Below are positions 1 through 7,969 of a stretch of DNA of 64,000 nt, one piece after another (positions within the stretch are counted from its first letter, which is position 1; every line of letters begins with the position of its first letter). The notes under the pieces are model-generated. The model was not told the DNA's origin and made no database searches. It saw only the letters and a list, made by a program, of their open reading frames with translations. The DNA is from Candidatus Kaelpia imicola (GTDB taxonomy: Bacteria > Omnitrophota > Gorgyraeia > Kaelpiales > Kaelpiaceae). The translations under genes were made by a program, and so were the position numbers. The stretch spans positions 35,933 through 99,932 of the forward strand of contig JAVCCL010000004.1 in the NCBI GenBank assembly GCA_030765505.1, written 5' to 3'.

Positions 1-35
1 TTTAGGCACCCTAGCATTACTAAAATGATGTATTT

Positions 36-1778
36 ATGACAAGCAGTAATTTTTTTAAATTAGAAGCAGCAGACTTAAAGAAAAGTTTTCTTGATTTAGA
101 TAGCATTCAAGATTTGGCTGCTCTTTTAGATGTAAGATGTAGCTTAGTAACATACTATGCTTTTATTCTGCCCGACAAAATAAAATATAAAAAGTTTACT
201 ATTCCTAAAAAATCTGGAGGTCAAAGAGAGATTAATGCTCCGATATTGCCATTAAAAGCAATTCAAAATAGATTAAATTTTATTCTACAAAATATTTACA
301 CCCCAAAGTCTTATGTGCATGGTTTTGTTAAAAAAAGAAGTATCCTTACTAATGCACGAAACCATGTATCTAAAAGTTTTGTTGGCAATATTGATTTAAA
401 AGATTTTTTCCCTTCTATTAATTTTGGTAGAGTTAGGGGGGTGTTCATAGCAGCTCCTTTTGAATTTAACAATAAAGTAGCAACAGCATTAGCACGTATT
501 GCATGTTTTGATAATTATTTACCGCAAGGAGCTCCGACTTCGCCTATAATTTCCAATCTCATTTGCGTTAAACTAGATAGTAGACTATCACAGCTTGCAA
601 GAAAATATGATTGTTTTTACACTCGATATGCAGATGATTTGACTTTCTCTACGTTGTCTAGTGTTTTCCCTGAAGCAATTTTAAAAAAGGAAGTAGTTAA
701 TGGTAGAGAAGATATTGTAATTGGAGAAGAATTAAAAAACACAGTGATAGATAATGGATTTAAAATAAATAAAAAGAAATTAAGATTAAAAGACAAAAGA
801 CAACGGCAAGAAGTTACAGGATTAACCACAAATGTTTTTCCAAATGTAAACAGGAAGTTTATTAGGCAGGTTTGGACGATGATTCATATGTGGTATAAGC
901 ATGGTTTAGCCTCTGCTGAGAAAGAGTATTTTAATCGCATAGACGATAAGTTTAGAAATCCGAAACATAAACGTCCGTCATTTAAAGAAATACTTGTTGG
1001 CAAGATAGATTTTATCGGGCAGATAAGGGGAAGGCAGGATAGGATTTATTTAAATTTATGTAGAACGTTTAGGAAGCTTTGTCCGAAGAAAAAATTCTAT
1101 GTTGATTATGATGATGAAAGTTTACCATTGATTATAACAGAGGGTAGTACCGATAGAATACATCTTAAGGCTGCCTTAAGAACGTTATATTCTAAAAGGT
1201 TGTATAGGTATCTAGATGTACGTTTTAATGAATATACACAAAGCATGGGTTCTGGTGCTTTGTCTAAATTATGTAAAGAGATGTGTAAAGTGCAACAACC
1301 AGTAAAAACAATATTTATTTTTGATAGTGACGAAGAGGAGTATATTGTATTTGCAAATGAGGGAGGTAGATGCGGTGCCCCTAGATATTGGGGCAATAAT
1401 GTGTTTTCCTTTTCATTGCCGATACCTCCCCACAGGCAAAAACAATCTTATATTAGTATAGAGCATTATTATAAAGATGATGAGATTAAGAGATTGGATA
1501 GTAACGGGTGTAGATTATTTTTTAAGAATGAATTTGACTGGAATACTAAGGAGCATCTTTCTGAGAATTTGAAAATAAAAGAAGACAAAAAGATAAAAGG
1601 AACAAAGCTTACCTCAATAATTGACCATAATATTGTTAGCAGTAGTAATGATGCTAATATGGTATTGTCAAAATCTCTGTTTGCAAAAAATGTGTTACAC
1701 AAAGAAAACAATTTTCACGATTTTAATTTCGATGAATTTACTAGAATCTTTGATTTAATTAATGAAATATTAAGATAA
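36..1778 (+). CDS. Retron-type reverse transcriptase fused to a C-terminal TOPRIM-like nuclease domain (Retron-Eco2/Ec67-like architecture)
   Basis: 580-aa ORF. RT motifs: IPKKSGGQREINAP, NIDLKDFFPSINFGRVRG block (characteristic of retron RTs as I recall them), LPQGAPTSPIISNL, catalytic YADD box (aa 198-201), retron-typical VTG motif (RQEVTGL, aa 258-264). C-terminal aa ~364-485 shows TOPRIM-type acidic motifs IITEGSTDRIHLKAAL (conserved Glu) and FIFDSDEEE (DxD) about 60 aa apart. Confidence 0.8.
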   Translation: MTSSNFFKLEAADLKKSFLDLDSIQDLAALLDVRCSLVTYYAFILPDKIKYKKFTIPKKSGGQREINAPILPLKAIQNRLNFILQNIYTPKSYVHGFVKKRSILTNARNHVSKSFVGNIDLKDFFPSINFGRVRGVFIAAPFEFNNKVATALARIACFDNYLPQGAPTSPIISNLICVKLDSRLSQLARKYDCFYTRYADDLTFSTLSSVFPEAILKKEVVNGREDIVIGEELKNTVIDNGFKINKKKLRLKDKRQRQEVTGLTTNVFPNVNRKFIRQVWTMIHMWYKHGLASAEKEYFNRIDDKFRNPKHKRPSFKEILVGKIDFIGQIRGRQDRIYLNLCRTFRKLCPKKKFYVDYDDESLPLIITEGSTDRIHLKAALRTLYSKRLYRYLDVRFNEYTQSMGSGALSKLCKEMCKVQQPVKTIFIFDSDEEEYIVFANEGGRCGAPRYWGNNVFSFSLPIPPHRQKQSYISIEHYYKDDEIKRLDSNGCRLFFKNEFDWNTKEHLSENLKIKEDKKIKGTKLTSIIDHNIVSSSNDANMVLSKSLFAKNVLHKENNFHDFNFDEFTRIFDLINEILR

Positions 1779-2051
1779 TTTAATTAAAAATCCAACTTCA
1801 ATATGCTGTTTATGGAGTAAGTGCATATATTTTTTAAAATTTTTCAATAATCTGTACTAGATTACCTTAATATTGTTGCTTGTTCCTTTATGTGCCTAGT
1901 AAAACTGTAGATTAATTTAGAAAGGTAAGTAATATATGAACGGGATATTAAACGGACAAGAATCGGTATTTTATAAATTATTTCGGTATATTTTTTTGCT
2001 AATTTCGAGAGATATTTCTAAGGAAACCACCTTGAAAAGCTTATGATTTTG

Positions 2052-2060
2052 TGGTATAAT
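2052..2060 (+). promoter_or_regulatory. Extended -10 promoter element (TGgTATAAT) in the long RT-downstream intergenic region
   Basis: Sequence tgTGGTATAAT; perfect TATAAT with TGn extension; no coding ORF follows for ~460 bp. Confidence 0.4.
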
Positions 2061-2112
2061 TTAAAAGTTAAGTAAGAGTTCCTTTAAAATGTTTATTTAG
2101 CAAAGAAAAGAT

Positions 2113-2141
2113 TTAGACGAATTAGAGATTCGTGGTATAAT
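2113..2141 (+). promoter_or_regulatory. Sigma70-like promoter (TTAGAC -17- TGgTATAAT)
   Basis: Second copy of the same gTGGTATAAT element with a -35-like TTAGAC at 17-nt spacing; transcription would run toward the 2523 ORF through a ~380-nt leader. Confidence 0.45.
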
Positions 2142-2522
2142 GTATCCGATAGTTCGAGAATCAATCTAAAAAATATTCCATCTAGCAGGGAAGATTAAAT
2201 TTCGGTATTTTATTCAATGTAGTATTGTCGATTAATTTAGATGTTAGTTTATAAAAAAGTTTTTTCCAATATATGGATGGATGGGGGAGCGTAGTATTGA
2301 TAAATTTTAATAACTTACGAGGAGGTGATGTCTATGAGAAATTGATATGGTAGTATTTTGTTGGTTGTTTGGGGTAGCGTAGGTCTAAGGCATTCTAAAG
2401 GAAGAAATTCCACCGTAGAGCTTATATAGAAATAATAATACATTTTCTATGAATTATTCTCCCTGAGCATTAGTCGAGGTTAAATAAAATGTTAACTTTA
2501 ACAATGTTTAAGGAGAATAATT

Positions 2523-3776
2523 ATGTATGCAGAAAACAGCAAAATTAACGTAGTATTAGTAGAGCTAGAAGTAAAAAAACATTTCCCCAAACTTTGGAAG
2601 GCTACCGAAGCTTCTTTAGCAACAGTTGCAACGCTCCTGTTGAAAAATAATGCTAACCCCACATCTTTAGTGTTGATAGGTCCAGTCTCATCTGGAAAAT
2701 CAACAGTACTAAGTTTTTTCCAAGGGTTAGAAAAGATTACTTACTGTACCGATTATTTTACAGCTAAAGCACTTGTTACTCATTATGCAAATAAAGATAA
2801 AAAGGAGCTAGATGATTTAGACCTACTTAAAAGAATCAAAGGTAAAAGTATGGTCGTTTCTGATTTAGGATGCATTTTTGGCTCCAAGAAAGATAATCTA
2901 AGAGAAACCCTAGGTATATTTACTAGAGCTTTAGATGGAGAAGGTCTTCTTACTGATTCTGGAGTTCATGGTAGGCGAGGGATTAAGGGGAGTTGTATGT
3001 TTGCAATGCTTGGAGGTACTACTCCATTTAAGTATAAAATATGGGATGAAATGGGGCGATTTGGCTCTAGGATGTTGTTTATTACAATGCCTTTTCTAGA
3101 GGATGAGACTAATGAAGATATCAAAAATGATTTTAAAGGTGAATTATCGTATTTAGAAAAAAGACAATTTTGCGGAGGGGAGGTCAATCAATATTTAAAA
3201 GATTTATGGGAAGAAACTGGCGGATTTCAATCTATCGATTGGGATGATAGTAGTACTTCAAGTGAGATTATGGATTTTATAATTGAATCTGCCAGATTGT
3301 TATCTAAGCTCAGAGGGTTAGTCCCGATATGGAACAGTAGCGATGGAGAATTCCAGTATCAACAACCTACAATAGAAGCTCCTCATAGAGCTATCTCTTT
3401 ATTTCTTAACTTAGCAAAGGGTAGGGCAATCATTAATGGAAGAAGGCAAATATGTATAAATGATATGGCTCTAGTGCTTGATGTGGCACTTAGTTCATGC
3501 CCGTCAGATAGAGGGAAGATATTTAAGGCACTGGTTAAATCGGAAAATGGTACTTTAAATACTCAAGAAGTATGCGAAGTACTCAATGTTAGTACTAAAA
3601 TAGCTTTAAGAGCTATGGAGAATTTTAGTATATTAAAAATAGTAGAGCATTACGATAGAAAGGAAGGAGTAGGTAGGCCTGGTTGTGTTATTCGCTTAAG
3701 AAAGGAAATAAAGGAGTGGACTGAAACTTCTAATTTTAAGCAATACTTTGCCGAAAACGAGAGTGATATAGGGTAA
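2523..3776 (+). CDS. P-loop NTPase with C-terminal winged-helix/HTH-like domain (possible replication-initiator or helicase-like ATPase of a mobile element)
   Basis: 417 aa. Walker A GPVSSGKST; candidate Walker B MVVSDLG; C-terminal segment TQEVCEVLNVSTKIALRAMENFSILKIVEH resembles a wHTH DNA-binding fold. Family assignment is not possible by eye. Confidence 0.5.
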   Translation: MYAENSKINVVLVELEVKKHFPKLWKATEASLATVATLLLKNNANPTSLVLIGPVSSGKSTVLSFFQGLEKITYCTDYFTAKALVTHYANKDKKELDDLDLLKRIKGKSMVVSDLGCIFGSKKDNLRETLGIFTRALDGEGLLTDSGVHGRRGIKGSCMFAMLGGTTPFKYKIWDEMGRFGSRMLFITMPFLEDETNEDIKNDFKGELSYLEKRQFCGGEVNQYLKDLWEETGGFQSIDWDDSSTSSEIMDFIIESARLLSKLRGLVPIWNSSDGEFQYQQPTIEAPHRAISLFLNLAKGRAIINGRRQICINDMALVLDVALSSCPSDRGKIFKALVKSENGTLNTQEVCEVLNVSTKIALRAMENFSILKIVEHYDRKEGVGRPGCVIRLRKEIKEWTETSNFKQYFAENESDIG

Positions 3777-3883
3777 TATATACAATACTTTATTATATAT
3801 ATATATAGTTATTGTTGTTATGTATCACTTAGTAAAAAGTAAAAAAACTACTAAAGAAACTACTAAAAAATGCTAGAGAAAAT

Positions 3884-3942
3884 GAACGATAAGTATGTTT
3901 TTTGTACTTATCGTTCAAGGGGGAACTATTTGGTTCCCCCTT
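3884..3942 (+). other. Two consecutive stem-loops between the NTPase and HTH genes (12-bp AT-rich stem, then 11-bp GC-rich stem aagggggaac/ggttccccctt)
   Basis: Perfect inverted repeats gaacgataagta...tacttatcgttc and aagggggaac-tattt-ggttccccctt. No U-tract follows either, so not a canonical intrinsic terminator. Confidence 0.4.
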
Positions 3943-4019
3943 CAGTATAACTAAGAACTTAATGCTTTACTCTATGCTACTATTCAGCTATAATATGTTA
4001 TAAGATGTTCTAATATACT

Positions 4020-4208
4020 ATGAATATAATAAAAGAACTTAAAGATTACCGATTAAAGAACAAAATTACTCAACAAGAATTAGCTAAGATGCTAGAAGTA
4101 TCATTTGCTACTGTAAATAGGTGGTTTAATGGACATACTAAGCCTAGTGAAATACAGGAGTATCATATAAAAGAACTACTAAAAAAGGAGGAGATAAAGG
4201 CTAAATAA
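4020..4208 (+). CDS. Small HTH DNA-binding protein, excisionase/AlpA-like (HTH_17-type)
   Basis: 62 aa; ITQQELAKMLEVSFATVNRW is a classic HTH signature. A -10-like TATAAT lies at ~3988-3993. The gene's 3' end is embedded in the first att-like repeat. Confidence 0.6.
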   Translation: MNIIKELKDYRLKNKITQQELAKMLEVSFATVNRWFNGHTKPSEIQEYHIKELLKKEEIKAK

Positions 4209-4290
4209 GAAAGCACTAGAAACAAGGTTTTTACAGGCTCATACCCGTATTGTCAGTGGTTCGAGTCCACTCACCGCCATTTCTAATCCT
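4186..4290 (+). repeat. att-like repeat copy A with tRNA-like 3' terminus (cagtggttcgagtccactcaccgcca)
   Basis: Contains a T-arm-like GGTTCGAGTCC plus an acceptor-like strand. Shares the HTH-gene 3' end plus the gaaagcactagaa...ggctcatacccgtattgtcagtgg block with copies B, C and D. Confidence 0.6.
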
Positions 4291-4451
4291 ACCTAATAAA
4301 TACATGCAATTTTAAAAAACTTATAAAGTAATTTGACAACACGAAATTATATGGTATAAATATATTGGAAATAAATTGCTCTTAGGGTGGGGAGCTTGAA
4401 ATAGATGAGATGAGAATAAAAGGTGTGAAAAGTAAAAAAGGAGGTTAGAAG

Positions 4452-5072
4452 ATGAAGAATTTAATAGTAATTGCGGCAATGGGGTTTTTAGGAATAACAA
4501 TGTTTAGTTTACCAAGTTTTGCTGTACCTTGGGAACAAGAAAAGATGCCTATAGATTGTGAGTACATACAACAAGAAAATCAACCAGCAATTGTCGGCAG
4601 TTTAGAAAAAATGGAATACGTCGACTTTAAGAAAGGGGCTGCTAAAGATATTGCATACTCATTAGAAGATGTTGATATGGATAGTTTAAATAAGGCCTTA
4701 GAAGTCATAGATAAAGCTTTATGTTCTTCATTGGTAGGTGGTGCATGTGTATTACCTATAGATGTTGAGAAGATAACTAGGCAACTAATGGCCATTGTAG
4801 GTGTATATTCAAAACAAGAAATGGATATTGAAGCTGAAACTGAATCTTTTACTAAAAGAATAGACGAATTTATCACGTTTAAATATCCTGATATACAAGA
4901 TTTTGCAATCGATGGCTACGTTCTGGGTATCCTTTTGAATATTTATAGTTGTGATTTAAGAAATATTTCATTTGAATGGCATGACTATAACGAAAGAGCT
5001 CTTAATGATTTAAGCAGAACTCCATTTGAATGGCATAACTATAACGAAAGAGCTTCTGATGAAGACAATTAA
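4452..5072 (+). CDS. Secreted hypothetical protein with C-terminal tandem repeat
   Basis: 206 aa; N-terminal signal peptide (MKNLIVIAAMGFLGITMFSLPSFA). A 33-bp DNA direct repeat (4969-5060) encodes FEWH(D/N)YNERA twice. Confidence 0.55.
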   Translation: MKNLIVIAAMGFLGITMFSLPSFAVPWEQEKMPIDCEYIQQENQPAIVGSLEKMEYVDFKKGAAKDIAYSLEDVDMDSLNKALEVIDKALCSSLVGGACVLPIDVEKITRQLMAIVGVYSKQEMDIEAETESFTKRIDEFITFKYPDIQDFAIDGYVLGILLNIYSCDLRNISFEWHDYNERALNDLSRTPFEWHNYNERASDEDN

Positions 5073-5095
5073 TCTTTGATTACGATCTAGATTAG

Positions 5096-5130
5096 AAAGC
5101 CCGTCATTAATTTGACGGGCTTTTCTTTTT
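5096..5130 (+). terminator. Rho-independent terminator
   Basis: aaagcccgtca-ttaatt-tgacgggcttt followed by ttttcttttt. Confidence 0.8.
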
Positions 5131-5185
5131 GTATATTCCTATTTAATTCCGTAGTAAAATAATACTATAAATACTAACCGCTTAA

Positions 5186-5360
5186 CCCCAAAAGGAGGCG
5201 ATGGAGGCTAAGCAGGGAAGTACTAGTAGTCAGTAGGGTCAAAACGTTAGTTTTCTGGCGTTAGCCGTGGCTCATACCCGTATTGTCAGTGGTTTAGTGG
5301 AGCATCCCGAGATAAAATATCTATAGTTGAATTTCAACGGGGCGAGTCCATCCACCGCCA
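5186..5360 (+). repeat. att-like repeat copy B (long form) with tRNA-like 3' end split by a 48-nt segment carrying a 13-bp palindrome
   Basis: ccaaaaggaggcgatggaggctaag...ttagccgtggctcatacccgtattgtcagtggtt[48 nt]cgagtccatccaccgcca; ~80% identical to copy D over ~170 nt. Confidence 0.6.
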
Positions 5361-5475
5361 AAGTCTCTTCTTTTGATTGGCTTGTTTTTTCTTTTGCAAT
5401 AGAATATTTTTGGATTAAAATATAATACAAAAGATAAAATTTGTTATTTTAACACTGTTTATTTCTGCCTGTATC

Positions 5476-5706
5476 TTGCCTGTTAATATTTTATATTCTC
5501 AAGAATATGGTGGTCTCACGGATTGGGAGTGGCAGGTGGTTAATGAGCTTGAGGATAGATTAGATGCTTTGGGGGATTGGCCAGATTGGGAAGATACAGA
5601 CAGAGTGGTTATGGAAGTAGCAAATAAGTATAGGCTTACTAAAGATGAACTGTATGATCTTGATGAAATAGCATTTTATTTACGGATATATTTGGGGGAT
5701 TTTTAA
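5476..5706 (+). CDS. Small acidic Trp-rich hypothetical protein (TTG start)
   Basis: 76-aa ORF, only non-ATG start in frame; very acidic (DWEWQVVNELEDRLDALGDWPDWEDTD). Coding status uncertain. Confidence 0.3.
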   Translation: MPVNILYSQEYGGLTDWEWQVVNELEDRLDALGDWPDWEDTDRVVMEVANKYRLTKDELYDLDEIAFYLRIYLGDF

Positions 5707-5729
5707 AATAAAAGTTGATTTGTAATTTA

Positions 5730-5795
5730 GGTGGTTTAATGGACATACTAAACCTAGCGAGATACAAGAGTATTATATAAAAGAACTACTAAAAA
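5730..5795 (+). pseudogene. Fragment of a second excisionase-like HTH gene (3' end only)
   Basis: ~90% identical to 4120-4190 (ggtggtttaatggacatactaa...aaagaactactaaaaa); no 5' part or start codon. Confidence 0.6.
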
Positions 5796-6017
5796 CCCCA
5801 AAAGGAGGAGATAAGGGCTAAATAAGAAAGCACTAGAAGTAAAGTTTTCTGGCATTAGCCGTGGCTCATACTTGTAATATTGGTGGTTCAAATCTACTCA
5901 TTGCTATATCTACATTTTACCGTGGTTAATTTATGTTAAATCGGTAGATTAGCGAAGCATCTCGAATGAAAAGCATCGTAGAGTAACTTCATTTGGGGCA
6001 AATTTACTTCCCGGCAT
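5796..6017 (+). repeat. att-like repeat copy C (degenerate)
   Basis: ccaaaaggaggagataagggctaaataagaaagcactagaag...ttagccgtggctcatacttg...tggtggttcaaatctactcattgc, plus a degenerate version of the 48-nt segment (tagcgaagcatctcgaatg...ggggcaaatttacttcccggca). Confidence 0.5.
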
Positions 6018-7745: not shown

Positions 7746-7808
7746 GTATATATTTCTTTTATCCCGTTTCAGATGTTGTTGAAAGAAGGGAATAAGCTAC
7801 TAAAAATA

Positions 7809-7969
7809 TCCAAAAGGAGGCGATGGAAGCTAAGACAGAGAAGCATTAGTAGCCGGTTTTCTGATGATAGCCGTGGCTTATACCTATAGTGCCGGTAGTT
7901 TAGCGGAGCATCTCGAGATAAATATCTATAGTTGAATTTCAACGGGGCAAGCCTACTCACAGTCAGTAG
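7809..7969 (+). repeat. att-like repeat copy D (long form); probable right boundary of the accessory region
   Basis: ccaaaaggaggcgatggaagctaag...atagccgtggcttatacc...tttagcggagcatctcgagataaatatctatagttgaatttcaacggggcaagcctactcacagtcag; homologous to copy B including the 13-bp palindrome. Confidence 0.6.

Follow-up and report, generated by a model that had tools for sequence, protein, structure and literature searches.

The 744-base gap at 1779-2522, between a retron reverse transcriptase (RT) gene and the gene of an MCM-like helicase, is most likely the promoter region and long translational-control leader of the helicase gene, whose Shine-Dalgarno sequence (SD) is locked in a strong hairpin. 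It is a control region of a fairly ordinary kind, with a few unusual details. On a wider scale, the gap probably forms the control region of a replication module within a small element that integrated at a tRNA-like site and carries the retron as cargo. The following genes and sites frame it in the window (the whole 64-kb stretch of DNA that was analysed):

36-1778, + strand: retron type I-C RT-Toprim gene, probable island cargo (PADLOC RT-Toprim_I-C, E 2.8e-158; Pfam RVT_1)
2523-3776, + strand: MCM-like AAA+ ATPase gene with a C-terminal winged helix, probable replication module of an integrated element (AlphaFold2, Foldseek, homologue context)
4020-4208, + strand: XRE-type HTH protein of 62 aa, candidate island regulator (Pfam HTH_3, E 8.8e-12; tblastn)
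4216-4280, + strand: tRNA-like 3' fragment, a probable att-type scar at the right island end and the first of four tandem copies

The fragment at 4216-4280 was not called as a tRNA, and three tRNAs were the only Rfam findings across the whole window. By tblastn, the 62-aa HTH protein is 61-63% identical to a divergently transcribed repressor-like gene beside the helicase operon of a relative (L168). Many decayed tandem element remnants lie in the left 8 kb of the window. GC content is 28% in the gap against 37% for the window, and falls to 25-28%. Blastn of 1779-2522 against phage and plasmid collections gave no match, and tblastx and blastn of the same bases against 83 loci (L001-L083) gave nothing significant; single-protein scans of genomes and metagenomes for the RT and NTPase (helicase-like) genes also returned no matches. 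Within the gap, Rfam offered only a sub-threshold mir-791 match on the hairpin, which at 24 bits against a gathering score of 70 is noise.

The product of the 2523-3776 gene, 417 aa long, is predicted to have an MCM-like AAA+ fold with a winged helix after it. The AlphaFold2 model has a pLDDT of 86.7, and among its top 50 Foldseek matches a single RavA chain is the exception to chains of MCM2-7 or archaeal MCM (E about 1e-7, TM about 0.45-0.5), while the protein profile weakly matches the MCM2 winged-helix region and wHTH regulators. Searches of curated families gave no Pfam (including MCM) or PHROG match, and tblastn of the protein against phages and plasmids gave none either. Homologues are often fused to primase domains and lie beside integrases, and an MCM-like gene of this kind is typical of small integrase-bearing elements.

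The gap contains no ORF of 60 aa or more, as the first-pass annotation of this DNA had reported; the longest are a minus-strand ORF of 42 aa (2315-2443) and a plus-strand ORF of 36 aa (1936-2046), the latter without a Pfam match. The 42-aa ORF was considered as a coding sequence and rejected, its one odd match, to nine repeated stretches in a single 740-aa protein, being judged a compositional or repeat artefact. The left part of the gap is a spacer that leads into two predicted promoters:

1779-2031, + strand: AT-rich spacer after the RT stop codon, with no predicted terminator and an unsupported 36-codon ORF (1936-2046)
1899-1921 and 1963, 1983, + strand: within that spacer, one copy of a 23-nt repeat and two copies of TCGGTATWTT (repeat search)
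2032-2060, + strand: predicted promoter P1, TTGAAA-17 nt-TGgTATAAT, an extended -10 promoter with 11/12 consensus matches and the upstream TG
2112-2141, + strand: predicted promoter P2, TTAGAC (2113-2118)-17 nt-TGgTATAAT, an extended -10 promoter with 10/12 matches and the TG present

Twin copies of the element GTGGTATAAT had been pointed out earlier, and both are exact (2051-2060 and 2132-2141) and the sole copies in 64 kb (2 against 0.09 expected); TTAGAC at 2113-2118 does sit 17 nt ahead of the second TATAAT, as was also said. The first copy has the better -35, which had been missed: TTGAAA at 2032-2037, with a 17-nt spacer and 11/12 matches. Predicted from sequence only, P1 and P2 each combine TGnTATAAT with a -35-like hexamer at 16-18 nt and face the gene, as do sigma-70 extended -10 promoters; transcription would start near 2067 from P1 and near 2148 from P2. 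The promoter scores use the sigma-70 consensus, assumed to be valid for an Omnitrophota genome, and promoters and folds alike are predictions. The sequence TGGTATAAW is over-represented genome-wide (7 against 1.7 expected), and at 4352-4360 there is a third copy, preceded at 17 nt by a perfect TTGACA. No intrinsic terminator is predicted on the + strand of 1779-2522, and as none stands between the promoters and the helicase-like gene, the gene would be transcribed with a leader of 375-455 nt; transcripts running on from the RT gene possibly feed it as well. The leader contains the following parts:

2148-2522, + strand: 5' leader of the helicase-like gene, with no intrinsic terminator; its length is about 375 nt if P2 is used and about 455 nt if P1 is used
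2274-2294, + strand: G-rich SD-like element TGGATGGATGGGGGAGCGTAG, with a second copy, 81% identical, at 2362-2382
2319-2345, + strand: strong SD GAGGAGGTGAT, 8 nt, then the three-codon mini-ORF ATG AGA AAT TGA; 9 nt are complementary to the canonical 16S rRNA 3' end
2452-2522, + strand: predicted 71-nt hairpin up to the helicase-like start, in which the anti-SD arm TTCTCCCT (2457-2464) pairs with the SD AAGGAGAA; it extends to position -1
2489-2548, + strand: hypothetical 19-codon ORF, a candidate for coupling, with its ATG in the hairpin apical loop and GAGG 9 nt upstream

The hairpin at 2452-2522 has a predicted energy of -26.9 kcal/mol (z = -8.0; 0/200 shuffles as stable) and appears in both the MFE and the centroid fold, the whole leader folding with z = -2.05. 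The fold prediction has the form expected of SD sequestration, with a stable stem in which the SD and start are paired with an upstream anti-SD, and the helicase-like start site is the least accessible of 60 window ORFs, with an unpaired probability of 0.10 against a median of 0.46. Upstream of it, the leader (2148-2522) has a strong G>C skew on the + strand and three SD-like G-rich elements, at 2274-2294, at 2319-2325 with the three-codon ORF, and at 2362-2382. The TGGATGGATGGGGGAGCGTAG element is the best predicted alternative partner of the anti-SD arm, although at -17.0 and -14.0 kcal/mol by RNAduplex the alternative pairings do not reach the stability of the masking hairpin. The GAGGAGG at 2319-2325, followed after 8 nt by ATG AGA AAT TGA at 2334-2345, is exactly as first described; GGAGGTGAT occurs as a single copy in 64 kb, and chance has also brought together a GGAGG, a start codon and a short ORF several times within genes of the window. 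The mini-ORF ends 178 nt upstream of the helicase-like start. The ORF at 2489-2548 runs through the 3' arm of the hairpin, with its stop 24 nt past the helicase ATG, and is not seen in the relative L001.

This relative, the closest with a long leader, has a protein 51% identical to the helicase-like protein and the same order of parts, and the conservation of the leader is drawn from it as the one relative of this kind. Its leader has a strong SD AGGAGGTGAT with a mini-ORF of two to three codons, then an SD-masking hairpin, plus the words GTAGTATTG and ATGGATGGA. The equivalent of the mini-ORF there is TAAGGAGGTGAT with ATG ACG TAA, 143 nt upstream of its gene, and the masking hairpin, of different sequence, is predicted at -21.2 kcal/mol (z = -5.9), L001 being the sole informative relative in this respect. 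The two leaders have five G/C-containing 9-mers in common against 0.45 expected (reached by 14/2000 shuffles), while five other relatives have 0; the shared words are not fully colinear, ATGGATGGA lying before the mini-ORF here and after it in L001. Where relatives have the gene tightly linked to an upstream ORF, start sites are open (0.44-0.60) and the masking hairpin is absent. Among viral contigs, a single-protein scan found nothing, and the one locus returned by an alignment scan (L171) is distant, high in GC and unsuitable for comparing non-coding DNA. The pattern GTAGTATTG..AGGAGGTGAT has 24 matches there, by rough estimate about the chance number, and none adjoins an NTPase or RT gene.

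If the leader works as its parts suggest, the helicase gene would by default be transcribed and not translated, and synthesis would need the hairpin to be opened. One route may be the pairing of the upstream SD-like elements with the anti-SD arm on the nascent RNA, possibly modulated by ribosomes loaded at the strong SD and mini-ORF. Another may be translation of the loop-starting ORF at 2489-2548, as in the tap/repA coupling of plasmids and the S004/repA coupling of SGI1, and a third may be cleavage of the long duplex. The three TCGGTATWTT words and the four GTAGTATT words would most simply be sites for an island DNA-binding protein, for which the 62-aa HTH protein and the helicase winged helix are candidates, and binding would bring about repression or autoregulation. 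The only operator words common to the gap and the upstream region of the HTH gene, or the operator regions of L168 and the locus L169, were AT-rich junk.

The repeats themselves are real, although a few of the coordinates first given were off by 1-3 nt. TCGGTATWTT does occur three times, with starts at 1963, 1983 and 2202 rather than 1965, 1983 and 2205; all three copies in the window fall within the gap, against 0.35 expected, and flank the promoters. The word GATTAATTTAGA is present twice as claimed, with starts at 1910 and 2230 and not at 1907 and 2231, and belongs to a 23-nt repeat (1899-1921 and 2219-2241, 83% identical); alone, it is not above chance. The repeated words GTAGTATT that had been noted are present, at 2291 and 2350, as part of a larger cluster. 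Beyond the spacer, two repeat features can be listed:

2199-2241, + strand: second repeat module, ATTTCGGTATTTTATT then GTAGTATTGTCGATTAATTTAGA, repeating words of 1963-1995 and 1899-1921; candidate protein-binding sites
2219-2557, + strand: cluster of four GTAGTATT words in one orientation (2219, 2291, 2350 and 2550), the last copy inside the coding sequence

Four of the five copies of GTAGTATT in the whole 64 kb fall here, all on the + strand and within 340 nt. Direct repeats exceed those of dinucleotide shuffles (17 9-mers against 6.2 and nine 10-mers against 1.9, each reached by 2/500 shuffles), whereas inverted repeats as a class are not above chance in 1779-2522 and TRF found no tandem array in the region.

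These repeats had led to the proposal of an iteron origin for the adjacent NTPase, of which the MCM-like protein with its winged helix and the clustering of the words stand, and the words as iterons do not fare as well, being short (8-12 nt), irregular and few. In this alternative, the gap, or 2199-2557, would be a replication origin in which GTAGTATT(G) and/or TCGGTATWTT act as iterons bound by the helicase winged helix beside an AT-rich unwinding region, the candidate target words being GTAGTATTG and TCGGTATTTT; we consider it unlikely. The adjacent gene is of a suitable type, an MCM-like AAA+ with a C-terminal winged helix and homologues fused to primases, the words are strongly clustered in a single orientation, the direct repeats exceed chance where GC drops to 25-28%, and GTAGTATTG, the only repeat word to recur in a relative, does so with a nearby GTAGTAAG in the L001 leader. 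However, L001 has one perfect copy only, and the word spacings here (20 and 219 nt; 72, 59 and 200 nt) are irregular and without helical phasing or a TRF array. An iteron origin typically has at least three direct repeats of about 17-22 bp at regular, phased spacing, and of its features the AT-richness alone was found. In addition, characterised islands such as SGI1 have their origin on the downstream side of rep, and the 3' flank of the helicase gene (3777-3945), with a (TA)n run and AACTACTAAA repeats, is an equally good origin candidate. The alpha primase-helicase of satellite phage P4 binds 8-bp iterons via its C-terminal winged helix, and the gap resembles that iteron origin in having short words of the same orientation beside a helicase gene with such a domain; it differs in that the copies are few and irregularly spaced and the candidate sites lie inside a transcribed leader. 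An origin could coexist with the promoters and leader, because it is common for initiator genes to regulate themselves by way of iterons at the promoters from which they are transcribed.

Somewhat less probable still is that the gap is a junction or spacer left by insertion of the retron beside the replication module, with working promoters, and with repeats and mini-ORF as functionless remains of small genes that decayed and of duplications that arose locally. Long leaders do not characterise the family, as five of seven relatives with DNA have short gaps or none, although the P0010 contig has a 259-nt gap, and relatives carry small genes (65 aa, DUF5659, 147-300 aa) directly 5' of the helicase gene that are missing from this window; decayed tandem element remnants fill the left 8 kb, and the gap DNA has no database match. 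However, no remnant or pseudogene turned up in 1779-2522 when the small proteins encoded ahead of the helicase gene in relatives (DUF5659 and others) served as tblastn queries, the SD hairpin is far beyond chance (z = -8) and recurs in L001, and the strong SD with its mini-ORF recurs there together with two other words.

A more ambitious version of the translational-control leader is improbable on present evidence. It holds that the leader is an undescribed cis-acting RNA switch of an integrative-element family, in which one anti-SD arm would be contested by the true SD on the one hand and, on the other, by the strong SD with its two- to three-codon ORF and by G-rich mimics of the SD. Helicase translation, and hence element replication, would in that case depend on the supply of ribosomes or on some signal, for instance phage infection, that is sensed alongside the neighbouring retron.

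It had also been suggested that the gap encodes a second non-coding RNA of the RT system, and this is not supported because a covariance model of such RNAs finds nothing in 1779-2522; a second or only retron ncRNA here, as a downstream msr/msd-like template for RT-Toprim, is very improbable. In its favour are the adjacency to the RT gene and the fact that only 35 nt precede the RT start in the window, so that the canonical upstream site is not visible. However, type I-C retron loci (Eco2/Ec67) consist of an ncRNA upstream of a single gene (PMC12916289). In eight relatives, an ncRNA flanked by a1/a2 stops 0-30 nt short of the RT start and shows compensatory changes in 19/27 pairs, and the covariance model (R1) built from these eight ncRNAs recovers 19 more copies in loci outside its training set, all just upstream of RT. 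The ncRNA is thus directly 5' of RT in 27 relatives, whereas the gap is 3' of it. In the 64-kb window R1 finds nothing at E <= 0.01, and with filters off over 1-6000 only noise of at most 9 bits. In the four closest RT relatives for which the gene layout was read, 8-211 nt separate the RT gene from unrelated genes on its downstream side. The gap at 1779-2522 matches no Rfam family, and it has words in common with the leader of L001, an NTPase relative with no adjoining RT gene. The likeness to a type I-C retron lies in the neighbouring RT-Toprim gene of this type; the a1/a2 repeats and conserved msr hairpin (GTCGTTGATCCNGCGAC-like) that such an ncRNA has upstream of RT were not found in 1779-2522. 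The RT-Toprim gene's own ncRNA is expected upstream of position 1, beyond the left edge of the window.

Of the suggested leader-peptide attenuator for the 2523 gene, the cis-regulatory leader is retained (promoters, no terminator, SD-masking hairpin, and a strong-SD mini-ORF that recurs in L001), and transcription attenuation is not. Classical attenuation, in which a ribosome stalled on the mini-ORF would decide whether a terminator or an antiterminator hairpin forms before the 2523 gene, has a tiny ORF with a strong SD in a long leader to recommend it and is scarcely credible, because there is no terminator, as hairpin and U-run, on the + strand between 2148 and 2522, and moreover the only strong hairpin runs up to the start codon, with AUGUAUGC coming next, the three-codon ORF (M-R-N) has no run of regulatory codons, and it lies more than 100 nt from the hairpin.

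The preferred reading, promoters and a translational-control leader for the helicase gene, removes a tempting but wrong idea, a downstream ncRNA for this retron, and places the retron, probably, as cargo beside a replication module that belongs to a small integrative element of the Omnitrophota. The mobile elements of this phylum are poorly known. If the leader mechanism is true, an SD-masking hairpin would keep MCM-like helicases of bacterial mobile elements translationally silent. In practical terms the gain is modest, and consists of defined elements to mutate and a covariance model for the upstream ncRNA of this RT-Toprim clade.

Among known systems, the mini-ORF can be compared to two- and three-codon minigenes and start-stop uORFs, such as the bar minigenes of phage lambda. 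Like them, it lies in the non-coding DNA of a mobile element and has a good SD, then AUG, and a stop after one or two sense codons. The bar minigenes owe their recognition to a toxic effect in peptidyl-tRNA-hydrolase mutants and are not known as regulators of a downstream gene. The protein it precedes is comparable to the MCM-like helicases of bacterial prophages, such as BcMCM of Bacillus cereus (PMC2715239, PMC3273815), in its MCM-type AAA+ core without the canonical MCM N-terminal domain, its place in an integrated element and its relatives fused to primase. Unlike BcMCM, it has no primase domain in the same polypeptide, and its similarity to MCM is by predicted fold only. For the leader, the nearest parallels are mobile-element replication genes coupled to leader ORFs, as in tap-repA of plasmid R1 and repY-repZ of ColIb-P9. 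The integrative element SGI1 likewise has translational coupling through a stem-loop over the rep start, in S004-repA (PMC7826253). Like these three, the region studied here has a mobile-element replication gene behind a leader, a predicted stem-loop over the ribosome-binding site and short upstream ORFs, with translation expected to be off until the stem opens. However, in SGI1, R1 and ColIb-P9 the leader ORF ends at or a few bases from the rep start, and rep expression has been demonstrated to depend on the translation of this ORF, whereas the three-codon strong-SD ORF lies 178 nt upstream here, and the only ORF that crosses the hairpin (2489-2548) starts in the loop and ends 24 nt past the ATG. 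No promoter for an antisense RNA was found, and the protein is an MCM-like helicase rather than a RepA-type initiator. The proposed leader would, if true, be an echo of the copy-number control of plasmids and SGI1, to which the recurring strong-SD minimal ORF would add a small new twist.

The gap that separates the retron reverse transcriptase (RT) gene from the helicase-like gene is most likely, on the model proposed here, the promoter and translational-control leader of a replication gene carried by a mobile element. It lies among the following genes and repeated sequences:

36-1778, + strand: 580-aa ORF, type I-C retron RT-Toprim
1779-2522: gap of 744 nt between the 580-aa and 417-aa ORFs
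2523-3776, + strand: 417-aa ORF, MCM-like AAA+ by predicted fold
4020-4208, + strand: 62-aa ORF, XRE-type HTH
4118-4280, 5183-5360, 5728-5900 and 7805-7950: four tandem att-like scars

PADLOC assigns the 580-aa protein to type I-C retron RT-Toprim (E 2.8e-158) and Pfam to RVT_1; for the 417-aa protein neither of these databases nor PHROG gives a family. A Foldseek search of the PDB with the AlphaFold2 model of the 417-aa protein (pLDDT 86.7) gave hits of E ~1e-7, the best 50 of them all MCM2-7 or archaeal MCM chains but for one RavA chain; the MCM match spans the AAA+ core and C-terminal winged helix, with weak profile support. Many homologues of this helicase begin with primase domains (zf-CHC2, Prim-Pol, Toprim), and those with readable context reside on small elements that also bear genes for integrases, excisionase-like HTH_17 proteins and cI/Cro-like HTH proteins; the fold, the primase-fused homologues and the element context are consistent with prophage MCM-like helicases such as BcMCM (PMC2715239, PMC3273815). 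The 62-aa HTH protein shares 61-63% identity with the product of a repressor-like gene that is divergently transcribed and adjoins the helicase operon in a related locus (L168), and a tRNA-like 3' fragment (about 4216-4280) comes directly after its gene. Because this fragment and the HTH gene end recur in the other three scars, the RT, helicase and HTH genes belong to an element that was integrated where tandem scars are found and that has the retron as cargo. Each scar consists of the HTH gene 3' end and then the tRNA-like 3' fragment (CAT anticodon-loop-like part, T-arm, ...CACCGCCA); the HTH end in copy 3 matches 4118-4185 at 93% identity, copies 2 and 4 hold an insertion of ~50 nt in the T-loop-like part, and none of the four fragments was called by ARAGORN or Rfam. 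The scars suggest that related elements have integrated and decayed more than once at a single site. ORF 4452-5072 also contains, at 4952-5059, a tandem duplication of 54 nt (83% identical). In a further locus (L002, 8925-10645), an RT fused to an aspartic-protease-like domain is found on an element with a helicase homologue (51% identity); this RT does not adjoin the helicase gene, and its presence indicates that retron-type RTs ride this element family more than once.

Re-reading of the sequence recovered in the gap every feature listed by the first-pass annotation, some start positions being shifted by 1-3 nt. The longest ORF there is 42 aa (minus strand, 2315-2443), and its one match (E 7e-12), in which it aligns to nine repeated stretches of a single 740-aa protein, is taken as a compositional or repeat artefact. 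The elements relevant to expression of the helicase gene, including a strong Shine-Dalgarno (SD) sequence with its mini-ORF, are:

2032-2060, + strand: P1, promoter-like, extended -10 (TTGAAA, 17 nt, TGgTATAAT; 11/12 consensus matches)
2113-2141, + strand: P2, promoter-like, extended -10 (TTAGAC, 17 nt, TGgTATAAT)
2319-2325 and 2334-2345, + strand: GAGGAGG, then after 8 nt ATG AGA AAT TGA
2452-2522, + strand: hairpin, final 71 nt of the leader (-26.9 kcal/mol)
2489-2548, + strand: 19-codon ORF, ATG 2489 in the hairpin apical loop, stop 2546-2548, GAGG 9 nt upstream

The sole copies of GTGGTATAAT in 64 kb (expected 0.09) are those at 2051-2060 and 2132-2141, and these previously described twin elements are, as predicted by consensus, two good promoters. 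Genome-wide, TGGTATAAW is commoner than expected (7 vs 1.7); a third TGGTATAA-type promoter at 4333-4360 (TGGTATAAW copy 4352-4360, perfect TTGACA 17 nt upstream) precedes the next gene, at 4452. Since no terminator-like site is found on the + strand across 1779-2522, transcripts from ~2067 or ~2148 should reach the helicase gene, whose leader, from these predicted starts, should be 375-455 nt long. Of the leader-peptide attenuator suggested earlier, a leader controlling the gene at 2523 is retained, and classical attenuation is rejected for lack of such a terminator.

The hairpin at the end of the leader has a z-score of -8.0, with 0/200 shuffles folding as well, and persists when longer stretches are folded, in both the MFE and the centroid structure. 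In the predicted fold, TTCTCCCT pairs with the helicase gene's AAGGAGAA, the pairing extending to the base preceding the ATG, and positions -16 to +3 have a mean unpaired probability of 0.10 against a median of 0.46, making this start the least accessible among the 60 window ORFs that reach 120 aa. In five of seven helicase relatives with DNA, the gene overlaps or closely follows an upstream ORF, and the start sites of these five are open (0.44-0.60). Among the seven, a long gap (463 nt) is found only in L001, a relative of 51% identity, the leader of which is laid out like that of the window: a promoter-like TATAAT, then ~195 nt downstream TAAGGAGGTGAT and ATG ACG TAA, and, 143 nt past this mini-ORF, a hairpin (-21.2 kcal/mol, z = -5.9) predicted to pair CTCCTTTT with its gene's AAAAGGAG. 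Both leaders contain GGTAGTATTG and ATGGATGGA, and they share five G/C-containing 9-mers vs 0.45 expected (14/2000 shuffles gave as many); the window leader has none in common with the upstream regions of five other relatives. The earlier observation of a strong SD with a mini-ORF is borne out in one relative, as GGAGGTGAT, a single-copy sequence in the 64-kb window (<0.01 expected per leader by our own estimate from base composition), recurs in L001 with a 2-3-codon ORF. Conservation of the leader elements appears partial and concerns this single relative. Two other helicase relatives, L168 (1740-1845) and L169 (990-1090), have before their operon (65-aa ORF, DUF5659, helicase) a conserved structured leader, which ends in a terminator-like hairpin and U-run directly before the first ORF; this is apparently a second type of leader within the element family.

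The gap may additionally serve as a replication origin, a reading that is compatible with a leader and that we regard as rather unlikely. Direct repeats are more abundant in the gap than in dinucleotide shuffles (9-mers, 17 vs 6.2; 10-mers, 9 vs 1.9; 2/500 shuffles as many in each case); in the same comparison inverted repeats, taken together, are no commoner than chance, and no tandem array was found. All three window copies of TCGGTATWTT (1963, 1983, 2202) lie on either side of the promoter pair (-70 to -100 relative to P1, about +55 relative to P2), and four of the five GTAGTATT copies in 64 kb (2219, 2291, 2350, 2550; all + strand) fall in the leader or, in the case of the last, on codons 10-12 of the helicase gene, all these words having one orientation; GATTAATTTAGA occurs at 1910 and 2230, both within a 23-nt repeat. 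The TCGGTATWTT and GTAGTATT words are plausible candidate sites for the island HTH protein or the helicase winged helix, with a plausible role in autoregulation and/or an origin, and the leader possibly also contains binding sites. For a classical iteron origin, however, the words are short (8-12 nt), few and irregularly spaced, one perfect copy alone recurs in L001, and the flank on the 3' side of this gene (3777-3945), where a (TA)n run and AACTACTAAA repeats lie, is an equally good and possible alternative candidate. The AACTACTAAA direct repeats are also found at 4159-4186 and 5769-5796, and two hairpins in the flank (3885-3915, 3919-3940) are probably terminators.

That the gap encodes a second retron ncRNA, as also suggested by the first-pass annotation, is very unlikely in view of the 5' position of the ncRNA in relatives, the null search of the window and the unrelated genes downstream. 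Type I-C retrons comprise an ncRNA and then one gene (PMC12916289). In 8/8 loci of full-length RT-Toprim relatives (L164-L167, L084-L086 and L004; 40-50% identity), an a1/a2 inverted repeat enclosing a conserved GTCGTTGATCCNGCGAC-like hairpin lies directly 5' of the RT, with compensatory changes in 19/27 predicted pairs. The covariance model built from these eight loci identified 19 further copies in loci outside its building set, each shortly upstream of the RT and on its strand (for example, L010 2704-2848 and L126 2823-2988), down to about 40% RT identity; an upstream ncRNA with an a1/a2 stem and conserved msr hairpin is thus well supported for this clade. The model had no match in the 64-kb window at E <= 0.01, and with filters off on 1-6000 it returned only generic hairpins (<=9 bits). 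As only 35 nt of the window precede the RT start codon, the ncRNA belonging to the retron is expected just outside the window. In the four closest RT relatives with layout read, the downstream gaps measure 8, 64, 162 and 211 nt and lead to unrelated genes (type I restriction, pyruvate formate-lyase, macro domain, others).

The translational-control leader would operate on a helicase mRNA that is made but poorly translated until the hairpin is opened. For the anti-SD arm, the alternative pairings predicted to be strongest are with G-rich repeat copies at 2274-2294 (-17.0 kcal/mol) and 2362-2382 (-14.0 kcal/mol), which flank the strong SD and mini-ORF; these copies or the strong SD may hold the arm on nascent RNA, leaving the true SD free, and ribosomes on the mini-ORF may alter which partner is available. 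Conceivably, a double-strand-specific RNase could instead cleave the 29-bp duplex. Alternatively, the hairpin may be opened by translation of the 19-codon ORF, a counterpart of which was not seen in L001. Such a route would resemble the tap-repA coupling of plasmid R1. It would likewise resemble the S004-repA coupling in SGI1 (PMC7826253). A promoter followed by a translational-control leader is a known kind of arrangement, the sole unusual detail being the recurring minimal ORF behind a strong SD.
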